Assembly: GCA_048939465.1 (NCBI GenBank)
Contig: JBHLPL010000049.1
Location: 1-13,478 of the forward strand
Direction: 5' to 3'
Origin: Promethearchaeota archaeon
GTDB taxonomy: Archaea > Asgardarchaeota > Odinarchaeia > Odinarchaeales > JBHLKK01
DNA length: 13,478 nucleotides
Shown here: one piece after another, positions 1 through 12,307 of the stretch
Numbering within the stretch: position 1 is the first letter of the stretch
Layout: each line of letters begins with the position of its first letter
Made by a program: the position numbers and the translations under genes
The notes under the pieces: generated by a model
Databases searched by the model: none
What the model was told of the DNA's origin: nothing
What the model saw: only the letters and a program-made list of their open reading frames with translations

Positions 1-426
1 GACTCTCTTTATCTTTGTCGCTCCTCCAACACTGATCTTCAATGAGCTTGCCTCGAATTTTACCTGGTCGTCAGTGGTCTCTTCCTCTTCTCCTAGTCCT
101 TCTCTTAACCTTTCGATCTTCCTTCTGAGTTCGTTAATCTTTGACAGCAGATTCTGGTTGTCTTGATTTCTCGTCTCAAGTTGATTCGATAGCCGATCTA
201 TTCGGTTCTTCATATCTTCTCTGTCGTAGTCGCTCCAGACTACTCTTGTTCCACCTTTCTCTCTCCTTGTGGAGATAAGATTCGCCGCTCTGAGAACTGC
301 AATTATGTCGTATACTCGTCTTCTGGGCATGTCAAGTAGCTGAGCCAGTCTGATGTTGTTAAGTCCTTCTTCCTTGGCTTCCTTCAGCAGGTTCACAGCA
401 GTTGTTGTTATCTCTGATAGCTTCAA
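1..426 (-). CDS. E2F/DP-family winged-helix transcription-factor-like protein with coiled coil (3' end runs off the window; absent from the ORF track)
   Basis: Manual translation from TTG at 426, with GGAGAGGGAAG upstream: MKLSEITTTAVNLLKEAKEEGLNNIRLAQLLDMPRRRVYDIIAVLRAANLISTRREKGGTRVVWSDYDREDMKNRIDRLSNQLETRNQDNQNLLSKINELRRKIERLREGLGEEEETTDDQVKFEASSLKISVGGATKIKRV. This is 142 open codons. RRRVYDIIAVL matches the E2F/DP RRxYD recognition helix, and a heptad coiled coil follows. Confidence 0.85.
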   Translation of the reverse strand, partial: MKLSEITTTAVNLLKEAKEEGLNNIRLAQLLDMPRRRVYDIIAVLRAANLISTRREKGGTRVVWSDYDREDMKNRIDRLSNQLETRNQDNQNLLSKINELRRKIERLREGLGEEEETTDDQVKFEASSLKISVGGATKIKRV

Positions 427-466
427 GCAACTTCCCTCTCCTTTTAAGAAAAATACACTAAATCGC

Positions 467-494
467 ATTTAAATAAATTATGGCCTTATATAAA
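467..494. promoter_or_regulatory. Candidate TATA boxes for the E2F-like gene (ATTTAAATAAA 467-477; TTATATAAA 486-494)
   Basis: AT-rich TATA-like motifs 40-70 nt upstream of the TTG start. Which one is used, and on which strand, cannot be determined. Confidence 0.4.
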
Positions 495-601: not shown

Positions 602-1008
602 GGGTGATAGAACTCTTTTCACCCACCATTCCATGAGACTGCTGGCGCCATTCGTAACATTTTCAGGTGGCATCGTAGAATGAGTAGGTGTGAGCACTCA
701 GGCCTACCTTGGTTCATTTGAACCACATCAAGGAGACTCCGTCCGAAGGGGCGGAGAGGAATTGAGCGATCCTTGAGTACTCGTGACAAACAAGCCAATA
801 AGTCCGAAGGTACACCTCTCTTCGATGTGGAAACGGTTAATGACCTCCGAGGAAGGACGGGTAAACCCTATAGATTGACGCTATACACAAGTCACCGGGC
901 TGGGACGCTGTAACCCCCCTGATTTGACGTGCGATGAAGCCAAAGCCTGAAAGGGAATTGCGGTTATGCACAGTCATAAGCTCCTTCTGCAAGGAAGGAG
1001 TGGTTTAC
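602..1008 (+). ncRNA. Putative large structured RNA (omega/reRNA-like) without an associated ORF
   Basis: Dense hairpins: GGGTGA 602-607/TCACCC 619-624; GTAGGT 684-689/GCCTAC 702-707; TGGTTC 710-715/GAACCA 720-725; TCAAGGA 728-734/TCCTTGA 770-776 enclosing CTCCGTCC-GAAG-GGGCGGAG 737-756; GGG-TAAA-CCC 859-868; TATAG 869-873/CTATA 881-885; GACGTGC 926-932/GCACAGTC 968-975 enclosing CCT-GAAA-GGG; CTCCTTCT-GCAA-GGAAGGAG 981-1000. GNRA loops and G-U pairs favour the + strand. The ORF track shows no ORF here. The 5' boundary is uncertain. Confidence 0.6.
977..1008 (+). mobile_element. IS200/IS605-type right end (subterminal hairpin plus TTAC)
   Basis: TAAG-CTCCTTCTGCAAGGAAGGAG-TGGTTTAC follows the AAGC-[hairpin]-TAGTTCAC pattern I recognise from IS605/TnpB right ends. 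Its reverse complement resembles the GTCAACTACCCC...GGGGCTT start of HEARO/IscB elements. No tnpA, tnpB or iscB is nearby. Confidence 0.6.
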
Positions 1009-1586
1009 TTTCGAGCATAAGGTATGGCTAACGCTCTCGAGAAGAACTCCAGCAGGAGTTCTGGAACAGGATTTATCCCTTTGTCTCTTGTCAAGTCGTT
1101 CCAAATCGATACGAGCTTAGCAAAATCCGCCCTTTCTCTTACTATAACAGAACCGATCTTATCTAATACTTCTGCACTGATGGCATTCCCTTTGTTTAGC
1201 CCTCTGCATTGCTTCGCCTTTTGTGCAACTCCCCAGCAGAGCCATCTCTTCTTGACATCGAAAGTGAATGGAAACGCCCTACATTCCATGGGCCGTACTG
1301 GATATACTGAGCACCTATTCCCATTGTCCAGAAAAACACACTTTCCTTCTTTATCCTTCAAAAGACCAAGAAAAGTGTCTCCCTTGATTGTACGAATGGG
1401 CGGGCTAGCAATGAATTTGCCAGCAGCTGCACTGTCCTCAAGATAATAGAAAGCTAGGAATTTGATTGCTTCCTGAGGCGTGAAGTTCAGGAATCTCGCA
1501 ATCCTTTGAATATCGTGATGCGTCACAGTCACAATGATACTGGGATCATTGCAGCAACGTCCGCATTTCTCACATTTGAATTTCAT
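1005..1586 (-). CDS. YkgJ-family CxxCxxCC cysteine-cluster (putative Fe-S/Zn) protein
   Basis: N-terminal FKCEKCGRCC and the internal CVFLDNGNRCSVYPVRPMECRAFPF motif. GGAG lies upstream of the ATG. Confidence 0.9.
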   Translation of the reverse strand: MKFKCEKCGRCCNDPSIIVTVTHHDIQRIARFLNFTPQEAIKFLAFYYLEDSAAAGKFIASPPIRTIKGDTFLGLLKDKEGKCVFLDNGNRCSVYPVRPMECRAFPFTFDVKKRWLCWGVAQKAKQCRGLNKGNAISAEVLDKIGSVIVRERADFAKLVSIWNDLTRDKGINPVPELLLEFFSRALAIPYARK

Positions 1587-3332: not shown

Positions 3333-5090
3333 TCATGAAGAATCAAATGGTATGCCCTGGCTATCCCATTTCCTAAGCGCATAATAATCGCTGAGTAGCT
3401 TTTCAAATTCTCTTTTATCCAAGAACATGCCTTTGCTCGGGCCTAAAGGAAACGGCTGTTCAAAGAATAGCTCTGGCAAACGATCATCTTTTCGACTTAT
3501 ACCGGCTTCCACACTGAATGATCGAGCAGAAGTGATTATCCTTGAACCGGTTGTTTTTAAGACCTTCTTCACAATAGAGACCCCAAACACCGAAACCAGT
3601 ACGCTTTCAATTAGATCCCAATCCATAACTGGTTGAATGAGATGACATACAAGAAGACTATCATAAATAGCAACTTTATCTTCTTCGTCAACAAGAAGCA
3701 GGGATTTTCCACCATAAGTATGTCGGTCTTCTTTGCCAAGCAATTCCTGTGTGAATAGTTGACTGCGGAAGTGACATGCGCCTCTACTGGCAACCGCATA
3801 GCCCAATCCGGTTCCTACAAGTCCTCTAGCATCAAAGCCGACAGGCTCAAGCCCTTTAACATGAACAGCAATATTTTCTAACCCTGTTCTTTTAGCTATG
3901 TGAAATACTCCGTTGGCCAAGTTGGAACCTATATCCTTACGCTGACTTATCAGTTCAAGCAACGCGTAGGTCGCCTCGGCATTACCGTAATCCAGATCCA
4001 GCCCTGTTTTGATTTTGCCCCTATCCTTAAGCATTATGGCAAAAGAGACTACGTTGCCCGAAGTCATAGGGTCCAAACCGAGTTTGTTACATAGATCCAC
4101 AAGACCGGTTATTGCGTGAATATCGCCTATGTCACAGAGACCTCCAAAACTGCTTATTGCTTCGTATTCTAATTCTGCTTTTGCATTGGCAAATGAATCC
4201 GACTTTGCATCACACAATTTTCTGCATCTGATCGGACAGCCCTCACACGACGTACGCTCAATCAGAACCTGATCAATAATTGCCTTTGAGTTTATTTCTG
4301 ACCTGAACCTAGATACACCACCGCTCCAGTACCTTGTTGGAAAGACTCCAAGTTCATTTGCAACATCTACCCAGAACGAAGTCCCGTGTTTAGGATATAC
4401 CTCGTTTGTTTCCCTGGATTTCGCTATTCTCTCAACAACCTCATCCACAGTCTCATTAAACCTTGTTTCGTCTTTGATTATTGGTTCTCTTGAACCCCCA
4501 AAAACGATTGCCTTAAGGTTTTTGGAACCCATTACTGCACCGCCACCACATCTACTGGCGGCATGATAATGGTCATTTACTATAGAGGCGTAGAGCACAA
4601 CATTTTCTCCAGCAGGGCCAATGCTAATTACACCTGTATCATCACCAGTATCCCTTCTAAGGGCATCCTCTGTTTCATGTGTTGTCCTTCCCCAGAGTTC
4701 TTTAGCATCATTGAATGCCACTTCCCCGTCAATAACAGATAGCCAAGTTGGGTTCTCTGCCTTTTTCTCAATTACCAGAGCATCGTAACCACTTTCCCAA
4801 ATCCTCCTTGCAGTGTGACCCCCTGCATAACTCTCTCCATAGATTTCAGTTAGTGGGGACTTGAAGAAAACACCGTACCAGTTTGCAGTTGGAAACTTCG
4901 TCCCTGTAAGAGGCCCAACAGCAATAATCAGTTTGTTTCCGGGACTTAGAGGGTCTATCGTTGGATCTACCTCCTCCTTAAGGATGAATGAGGCTATTCC
5001 TTTGCCCCCAATGTATTCCCAAGCCATCTTATAGGGAAGCGTGAGCCTTTCAGCTTTTTGACTAGAAAGATCAATGCGAAGGATTCTCAT
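3333..5090 (-). CDS. aor: Tungsten-containing aldehyde:ferredoxin oxidoreductase family protein
   Basis: ILRIDLS, YIGGKGIA, KSPLT, GPAGEN, GAVMGSKNLKAI, CEGCPIRC, EYE, GLDPM and RGACH motifs; 585 aa. Confidence 0.95.
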   Translation of the reverse strand: MRILRIDLSSQKAERLTLPYKMAWEYIGGKGIASFILKEEVDPTIDPLSPGNKLIIAVGPLTGTKFPTANWYGVFFKSPLTEIYGESYAGGHTARRIWESGYDALVIEKKAENPTWLSVIDGEVAFNDAKELWGRTTHETEDALRRDTGDDTGVISIGPAGENVVLYASIVNDHYHAASRCGGGAVMGSKNLKAIVFGGSREPIIKDETRFNETVDEVVERIAKSRETNEVYPKHGTSFWVDVANELGVFPTRYWSGGVSRFRSEINSKAIIDQVLIERTSCEGCPIRCRKLCDAKSDSFANAKAELEYEAISSFGGLCDIGDIHAITGLVDLCNKLGLDPMTSGNVVSFAIMLKDRGKIKTGLDLDYGNAEATYALLELISQRKDIGSNLANGVFHIAKRTGLENIAVHVKGLEPVGFDARGLVGTGLGYAVASRGACHFRSQLFTQELLGKEDRHTYGGKSLLLVDEEDKVAIYDSLLVCHLIQPVMDWDLIESVLVSVFGVSIVKKVLKTTGSRIITSARSFSVEAGISRKDDRLPELFFEQPFPLGPSKGMFLDKREFEKLLSDYYALRKWDSQGIPFDSS

Positions 5091-11983: not shown

Positions 11984-12130
11984 GGGCAGTGAACTGGCCC
12001 TAGCCCTCGCAAGGGGCCATCCCTCGCTCTCTGGATCGCCAGCACGTCTCCTCTCAGAGGAGTGAATACTGGGAAGTTTTGGGCAGGTTTAAATCCTTTG
12101 CTGGTGCCTTAGGGCGAGGCAGTCATGCCC
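11984..12130 (+). ncRNA. Putative ~150-nt structured RNA of unknown family
   Basis: Closing stem GGGCA 11984-11988/TGCCC 12126-12130, TGAACTG/CAGTCA and GCCCTA 11997-12002/TAGGGC 12110-12115. Internal arms: CCTC-GCAA-GGGG, ATCC/GGAT, CGCCAGCA 12037-12044/TGCTGGTG 12099-12106 and CTCCTC-TCA-GAGGAG. It is GC-rich relative to its flanks. The G-U pairs and GNRA loop favour the + strand. Confidence 0.55.
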
Positions 12131-12307
12131 GTCAGGATATATGCGAAGGGCCTGTTTCTTCTGTATTCCTTTTCTTCACTCCAAGGCAACAAACCTCAAG
12201 TTTGGGTTTTCGTGAGAGTATTTAAGTTCACCGCAGTCCATCTCCGCTCTATCGGGCAGAGTCTTCTTGTGGAGGGCAGAGAGAGTTTTCGTGTGTGGAT
12301 CAGCCCT

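Follow-up and report, generated by a model that had tools for sequence, protein, structure and literature searches.

A protein-less, PATE-like element that probably carries an omegaRNA cassette, derived from a tnpB-only IS200/IS605-family element in an archaeal genome

The locus and the boundaries of the element

The window analyzed here is a 13,478-nt stretch of DNA, contig C96 of an archaeal genome bin (1.96 Mb, 152 contigs, 91% complete), and archaeal housekeeping genes lie nearby (Alba, PAC2, aldehyde:ferredoxin oxidoreductase, KaiC-like ATPase, and Topo VI-A). The interval of interest, positions 602–1008, has as its left neighbor an E2F/DP-like winged-helix gene (1–468, minus strand) and as its right neighbor a CxxCxxCC-domain gene (1005–1586, minus strand). 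An earlier, sequence-only reading had described the interval as an ORF-free gap filled by an RNA of about 400 nt, structured on the plus strand and ending in an IS200/IS605 right end. The gap is indeed free of credible ORFs; only 59- and 51-aa minus-strand ORFs are listed between the two neighboring genes, and these overlap the element described below, which holds no protein-coding gene. A conserved small ORF in 469–717 or in the element can be rejected on account of stop codons and nonconserved ATGs, a remnant ATG being present in some copies. There is no tRNA in the window, and Rfam covariance models have no match across the whole window at gathering thresholds. At E values up to 10, a search of 400–1200 returns two chance-level hits, both outside 602–1008; none of the models that the sequence-only reading had pointed to (HEARO/IscB RNA, IS605-orfB motifs, and group I introns) matches within that interval.

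We find that only part of the interval belongs to a dispersed repeat. Searching its own genome yields ~16 near-full matches to 713–1008, with 67–80% identity, and no match to 602–712. A profile built from these copies (nhmmer, own genome) recovers 18 full copies, two end-only forms, and one intermediate form, together with ~35 further left-end-like matches, one of them in the window. When the copies are aligned with their flanks, similarity drops sharply on both sides in every copy, which sets the repeat boundary at 713/718. The BLAST and nhmmer repeats, the sharp aligned ends, and the absence of the unit from two orthologous loci in sister genomes delimit a nonautonomous element of 291 nt on the plus strand (718–1008).

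The two orthologous loci (G002:C10 and G001:C40) are empty and read ...GGTTCAT|C(T)..., whereas the occupied site in the window reads ...GGTTCAT|[718...GTGGTTTAC 1008]|TTTCGAGC... The pentanucleotide TTCAT (713–717, plus strand) is host DNA and constitutes the target, or transposon-adjacent motif (TAM), both from the empty-site comparison and from the consensus of 16 copies, in which its five positions are occupied by T (12), T (15), C (11), A (11), and T (15). Two further copies can be compared in the same manner: the site of the copy on contig C66 is empty in G002:C80 and orthologously occupied in G001:C22, while that of the copy on contig C10 is empty in both G001:C1 and G002:C69. In all three occupied-versus-empty comparisons, insertion is directly 3′ of TTCAT, oriented, and without target duplication. 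We show that the element has been mobile on the timescale of species divergence.

The insertion point coincides exactly with the stop codon of the CxxCxxCC-domain gene (1005–1017 with 713–717). In the sister genomes, the TGA stop of this gene is the reverse complement of the TCA in TTCAT; here, the right end of the element (TTA of GTTTAC) gives TAA at the same codon position, and the length of the protein is unchanged (...PYARK*).

Positions 8–685 of the window are conserved host DNA that stands without the element at the sister loci. Since the sister genomes keep 602–717 in the absence of the element, we removed these positions from the feature: they are 116 nt of ordinary host intergenic DNA. 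Their predicted fold has a z score of −1.35 (21 of 200 shuffles were as good), and their hairpins are not kept in the sister-genome sequences, though the DNA is present there. The ~400-nt feature first proposed therefore contracts to 718–1008. The plus-strand structure that had been claimed for it is borne out, with a z score of −3.0 for 590–1020 on the plus strand against −0.85 on the minus strand, GAAG and GAAA tetraloops, and many G-U pairs that fit the plus strand only. For the element alone (718–1008), the values are −2.1 on the plus strand (1 of 200 shuffles as good) and −1.5 on the minus strand. The TTATAT motif at 538–543, once suggested as a promoter, fares less well: 175 nt separate it from the element, and the orthologous locus in G001 does not conserve it.

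Within the host DNA, a noncoding block (596–685) is ~75% conserved in two sister species, for example at GCTGGCGCCATTC[GA]TA. No frame is open across all three genomes, and the block has no Rfam match and no tRNA; it may be a 3′ untranslated region or a small RNA.

Two sister species and a second family of the phylum have copies of the element as well; in this second family, the full short elements (G024 and G034) measure ~335 nt and carry a 29-nt insert after the left end. The motif GGAAACGGTTAATGAC is multicopy in all three genomes of the own family (own genus) and in all five of family f16, and it is not multicopy in the other ~390 of the 400 phylum genomes searched. Three local arrangements in the own genome can be added to this distribution. 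On contig C139 (2698–5570), a stretch of less than 3 kb holds three family members in the same orientation, of which one is partial. On C118 (~3937–3990), a copy directly follows an apparent tRNA 3′ end (GTTCGAGTC...CCCCGGCGCCA), with TTTAT between this and the element. On C59 (~1586–1615), a second right-end-like hairpin, which also ends in ATAGTTTAC, stands directly after the right end of a copy, so that two right ends are in tandem.

The parent element and the anatomy of the short form

Two contigs of the same genome, C70 and C55, overlap by 77 nt and when joined form a 1.25-kb tnpB-only IS605-type element. Its left end is the one found in the short copies (TTCAT, hairpin, and GGAATTGAG), and its right end consists of a hairpin followed by GTAGTTTAC. 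The motif ATTAAATA ends 22 nt before the tnpB ATG, from which we infer a leaderless mRNA. The ORF encodes 385 aa, and its stop codon lies 14 nt before the right end. The protein matches OrfB_IS605 and Cas12f1-like_TNB and has the motifs GVDLG, IEDL, and NSDLNGA as well as two CxxC pairs; with its RuvC-type D, E, and D motifs kept, it is apparently intact. The left end (profile positions 1–79) and the right end (162–305) flank tnpB also in G001 (L042) and G034 (L047). We show that the element in the window is a dispersed, diverged repeat that shares its left end and its last ~150 nt with this 1.25-kb element. The sequence-only reading was thus right to place an IS200/IS605 right end at the terminus of the locus, to note that no nuclease gene is present there, and to expect a TnpB-like protein to be encoded elsewhere.

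Relative to the parent, the short form can be divided into three parts. Profile positions 1–83 hold the left end and the TATA box and are common to the full-length element; positions 84–151 correspond to a mid module that derives from the tnpB ORF; and positions 152–305 comprise the last ~150 nt of tnpB and the right end (152/162–305 match C55, C5, L042, and L047). As judged from these alignments, the short form is an internal-deletion derivative in which the promoter, a small piece of the ORF, and the 3′ scaffold were retained.

Two end-only forms of ~105 nt (C84:8667–8771 and C41:8644–8748), in which 49 nt of the left end are joined to 58 nt of the right end without a scaffold, are classical minimal PATEs. 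An intermediate decay form (C5:934–1316) keeps the left end, a remnant of the tnpB zinc ribbon with an in-frame TAG, the scaffold, and the right end.

In the window copy, a left-end subterminal hairpin (CTCCGTCC-GAAG-GGGCGGAG; 737–756, plus strand) lies 19 nt in from the left boundary. This hairpin also stands ahead of tnpB in C70; it is predicted in most copies, with 87% of alignment cells paired and three of its eight pairs changing on both sides. A TATA-like box follows at 771–780 (plus strand), with the family consensus CCTTAAATAC in alignments A1 and A2 and the degenerate form CCTTGAGTAC in the window copy. This box is a better promoter candidate than the TTATAT motif discussed above. The 45-nt mid module (801–846, plus strand; AAGGYACACC...GTGGAAACGGTTAATGACC) can be traced to the tnpB ORF by collinear matches and is separated from the scaffold by a variable linker with indels (847–870, plus strand; columns 168–203 of A2), which is 50% identical in the genus and 34% between families.

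The remainder (871–1008, plus strand) is an omegaRNA-like scaffold, identified by homology to the last ~150 nt of tnpB and the right end, by covariation, and by third-codon conservation. Two short helices, 874–877/896–899 and 902–904/916–918, are followed by a long irregular stem with a GAAA-capped tip (925–976) and by the right-end subterminal hairpin (CTCCTTC/GAAGGAG; 980–1001), 7 nt from the end of the element, all on the plus strand. The terminal hairpin had been recognized from the sequence alone, as had the segment behind it, TGGTTTAC (1001–1008). In the alignment, 94.7% of the cells of this hairpin are paired, and three pairs are swapped on both sides in all eight second-family copies. 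The stems of the two end hairpins are related (CTCCGTCC/GGGCGGAG and CTCCTTC/GAAGGAG), lie on the same strand, and both covary. A pseudoknot is proposed between GUAACC (consensus GUAAAC; 910–915, plus strand), in the loop of helix 902–918, and the transposon-end motif GGTTTAC (1002–1008, plus strand), with one U bulged in the window copy.

Support for the scaffold comes from alignment A2, which contains 36 sequences, second-family copies included. RNAalifold recovers the helices from A2; with the pseudoknot, which we added, these amount to 43 pairs, for which 92.5% of cells are paired compared with 40–50% when the partners are slid by 1–3 columns. On both sides, changes occur in 22 of the 43 pairs, and double-change cells number 95 where 30 are expected, a count that none of 500 shuffles attains, though many of these double changes are one event common to the eight second-family copies, and the structure was derived from the same sequences used to test it. 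The structure could be tested only once the diverged second-family copies had been added: with the 18 own-genome copies, RNAalifold gives an unconvincing long-range fold, and two all-against-all covariation screens are swamped by G-U-tolerant chance helices. We show that the 3′ part of the element has a covarying, strand-specific secondary structure and is homologous to the 3′ end of tnpB.

The pseudoknot (GUAAAC/GUUUAC) is paired in 94–95% of cells, but its strands are almost invariant, and two or three copies are informative. Variants in C84 (GAAAUG/CAUUUC) and C73 (AACCAC/GUGGUU) support it, and single mismatches are found in C106, C61, and C69a. In the omegaRNA of ISDra2, positions −5 to −3 pair with positions −103 to −105, beside the terminal stem and a long middle stem (PMC10097598), and the topology that we propose would match this arrangement. 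Across three full-length tnpB genes, third-codon identity rises to 8–9 of 10 over the last ~150 nt, compared with 0.44 overall, a rise that an RNA scaffold overlapping the ORF would be expected to cause. With no Rfam match, the assignment as an omegaRNA is based on homology to the tnpB 3′ end and on structure.

Downstream of the element, 16 nt of host flank (1009–1024, plus strand; TTTCGAGCATAAGGTA) form the predicted guide segment, by analogy with the TnpB mechanism (PMC10055086 and PMC10097598); TTCAT joined to this flank reconstitutes the empty site. By profile score, the window copy itself is 10th among the 18. Its helix 874–877/896–899 is weak, with a mismatch and two wobble pairs, and given the degenerate TATA box, this weakened first scaffold helix, and the bulged pseudoknot, it may be decaying or inactive.

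Mobilization, retention, and rival explanations

The genome carries a single Y1 tnpA, on contig C105 (Y1_Tnp, E = 7.5e-37), and further tnpB genes on C2 and C105 (433 aa). In the elements of C105 and C2, the right end consists of a hairpin followed by AGTAGTTCAC or CAGTTCAC and resembles that of the present family. An nhmmer profile of the short-element ends has no match to the tnpA-bearing element of C105, and compatibility with it is judged from the similar right-end hairpin and terminus.

Two small elements can be recorded beside these. Just upstream of tnpA on C105 (~1000–1042), a unit of ~45 nt has the look of a left-end leader fused to a right-end hairpin and TAGTTTAC; it may be a minimal element inserted beside the autonomous IS. 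The window also contains another IS605-type mini-element without a gene, which belongs to a different family (11991–12283, minus strand). Its left end has the hairpin CTCTGCCC-GATA-GAGCGGAG and the TATA-like box ACTTAAATAC, and its right end (...GGGCCAGTTCAC) is like that of the C2 tnpB element.

We consider it probable (roughly 0.85) that 718–1008 is a PATE-like, protein-less, nonautonomous derivative of a tnpB-only IS200/IS605-family element that carries an omegaRNA cassette. PATEs that encode omegaRNAs and are acted on in trans have already been described (Meers et al. 2023, PMC10055086). In such a scheme, the Y1 TnpA of C105 would recognize both subterminal hairpins and excise and reinsert the top strand in trans (peel-and-paste), a step suggested by the very similar hairpin and AGTAGTTCAC in which the C105 element ends. 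Transcription from the internal TATA box through the right end and into the flank would produce the scaffold with a guide of ~16 nt. TnpB from the full-length element could then load the RNA of the short element in trans and cut an empty site, where TTCAT adjoins a match to the guide, while the occupied site would be protected, as its flank is preceded by TTTAC and not by TTCAT. Homologous repair would restore the element, a form of homing that would favor its retention (Meers et al. 2023, PMC10055086). Scaffold-bearing forms outnumber end-only forms by 18 to 2, though the ends alone define a PATE; this ratio fits a benefit of guide-RNA retention and is no proof of it.

The rival that survives best, although we regard it as improbable, is that the copies are inert relics: decaying remnants left by internal deletion of tnpB, no longer mobile or transcribed, whose structure is inherited and not selected. 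Such a history would suit the degenerate TATA box and weakened helices of the window copy, the 67–80% identity among copies, which implies age, and the orthologous C66 insertion in G001, which has been immobile since that split. It accounts poorly for helices that are kept through compensatory and G-U changes across copies, or for modules that are unevenly conserved (82% in the mid module, 77% in the scaffold, and 50% in the linker). Moreover, presence or absence differs among the sister species at all three loci examined, and the full 291-nt form, not the end-only form, is the prevalent one.

The sequence-only reading had offered two possibilities, a nonautonomous element or a stand-alone guide-RNA locus, and our results retain the first, including its guide scaffold for a protein acting in trans. 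The second would be a domesticated locus whose RNA guides a TnpB-like protein to a target in the host in order to regulate it, as in TldR-like systems, and not for transposon maintenance. The window has no nuclease gene, and exapted TnpB relatives are reported to exist (bioRxiv 10.1101/2023.11.30.569447). Against this, the element is multicopy and polymorphic in position, and its site is empty in both sister species, which argues against a conserved host function; the cognate TnpB also keeps its RuvC-type motifs. The flank-derived guides of 13 copies have no second match in the genome adjoining TTCAT, and the only other genomic match of the window-copy guide (with up to two mismatches) is not beside TTCAT. 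Thus, nothing suggests a host regulatory use, and we hold domestication to be very unlikely.

Two further explanations have still less in their favor. A new class of structured RNA of ~400 nt spanning 602–1008, which the plus-strand z score of 590–1020 and the lack of an Rfam match might have recommended, can be set aside almost entirely, given that sister genomes have 602–717 without 718–1008, that 602–717 folds no better than shuffled sequence and lacks conserved hairpins, and that the repeat boundary lies at 713/718 in all copies; the scaffold occupies only the last ~150 nt, is homologous to the tnpB 3′ end with an omegaRNA-like pseudoknot topology as modeled, and belongs to a PATE-like kind already described. 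Equally hard to sustain is a MITE derived from a DDE (cut-and-paste) transposon and bounded by terminal inverted repeats, for which the weak complementarity of the ends (TAAACCACCTC and GAGGAGTAGTTTA) could be cited. None of the three junctions that were set against empty sites has a target-site duplication, the orientation of the insert is fixed with respect to TTCAT, both hairpins lie on one strand and are subterminal and asymmetric, and the ends are those of a tnpB element.

History of the short form and its place among known systems

The preferred reading of a PATE-like element with a guide-RNA cassette leaves the mid module to be accounted for. Its identity, 82% in the genus and 80% between the two families, is the highest in the element, compared with 77% and 57% for the scaffold, 78% and 45% for the right-end hairpin, and 50% between families for the whole element. 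In the orthologous C66/G001 pair, the mid module is 98% identical. Its two halves, AAAGGCACACCT and GTGGAAACGGTTCATGAC, are collinear with the tnpB coding sequence (joined element 814–825 and 861–878), where they are 35 nt apart; in the short element they are 9 nt apart. Within full-length tnpB, the synonymous conservation of the module is not exceptional (7 of 10, like several other windows). No pairing partner for it is convincing. Own-genus copies suggested that it forms a helix with the left-end region (CCACCTCAAGGAGA), but this was dropped as the second family does not keep it; evidence for a hairpin within the module and for a GGUC/GACC closing stem is mixed and uncompensated, so that neither of these two is claimed.

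Set beside the archaeal promoter consensus, the mid module resembles a BRE/TATA arrangement (GGAAAC-GG-TTAATGA), ~35–45 nt before the scaffold. The sequence GGAAACGGTTAATGA at 829–843 is a second candidate promoter box.

Derived states of the mid module are common to both host families (the CCTCTC junction and TTAATGACC), a hint that the short form arose once. In a tree of the scaffold core, however, the short elements do not fall together across the two host families. Second-family short copies group with the full-length element of that family, and the own-genus (g1) short copies stand in a clade of their own, away from the full-length g1 scaffold, so that cross-recognition by the C70/C55 TnpB is not assured. 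Tentatively, and with the odds against it, the short elements could represent an old lineage of “promoter plus guide RNA” transposons that has long persisted and evolved independently in two archaeal families, in which the most constrained part would be the 45-nt tnpB-derived module (GGYACACC...GTGGAAACGGTTAATGACC) and not the TnpB-binding scaffold. The module might then have a function not recognized before, such as that of a BRE/TATA-like promoter inside the element or of a 5′ domain belonging to an extended omegaRNA.

Archaeal PATEs have reportedly been known since 2011, when Dyall-Smith et al. are said to have described them in Haloquadratum walsbyi and other haloarchaea and to have defined them by their terminal palindromes, before omegaRNAs were known. 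Like those, the present elements are archaeal, gene-less IS200/IS605 derivatives bounded by the ends of the parent, and the ~105-nt C84 and C41 forms resemble the haloarchaeal end-only forms. The difference is that the present family is dominated by the form with a guide-RNA scaffold.

A closer counterpart in organization is provided by the ISGst PATE-like elements of Geobacillus stearothermophilus (PMC10055086). These also have no protein gene, share their left and right ends with tnpB elements, and keep an omegaRNA; a need for TnpA and TnpB in trans would, by analogy, be common to both. In both, a pentanucleotide TAM abuts the left end, and copies far outnumber a single tnpA. The present family differs in its archaeal host, in its TAM (TTCAT), and in having kept the archaeal TATA box of its parent and an extra conserved 45-nt piece of the tnpB ORF. 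Sequence similarity between the two was neither detected nor expected.

The scaffold can likewise be compared with the ISDra2 TnpB omegaRNA (Nakagawa et al. 2023, PMC10097598). Each has an overlap with the 3′ end of tnpB and extends as far as the right-end boundary; a hairpin stands immediately 5′ of the guide, and the middle stem is long and in part irregular. In each, as modeled here, a pseudoknot would join the last ~6 nt to a segment ~95–105 nt upstream. The TAMs are both pentanucleotides (TTGAT in ISDra2 and TTCAT here). There is no detectable sequence similarity to ISDra2; the present scaffold measures ~140–150 nt against a 116-nt ordered core, and the mid module stands before it in the short elements.

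Thus, this kind of element has already been described, and the find is real but largely ordinary: the structured, ORF-free stretch is a known type of mobile element and does not warrant annotation as a new RNA gene. It offers a clean archaeal example, with exact boundaries, the TAM TTCAT, three empty sites, a full-length parent, a decay series, and a scaffold supported by covariation. In this genome, guide-RNA-only IS605 derivatives outnumber their nuclease-bearing parent ~18 to 1–2. The short forms that occur in nature distinguish the parts that the element can lose from those that it retains and could guide the minimization of the guide RNA of the C70/C55 TnpB.
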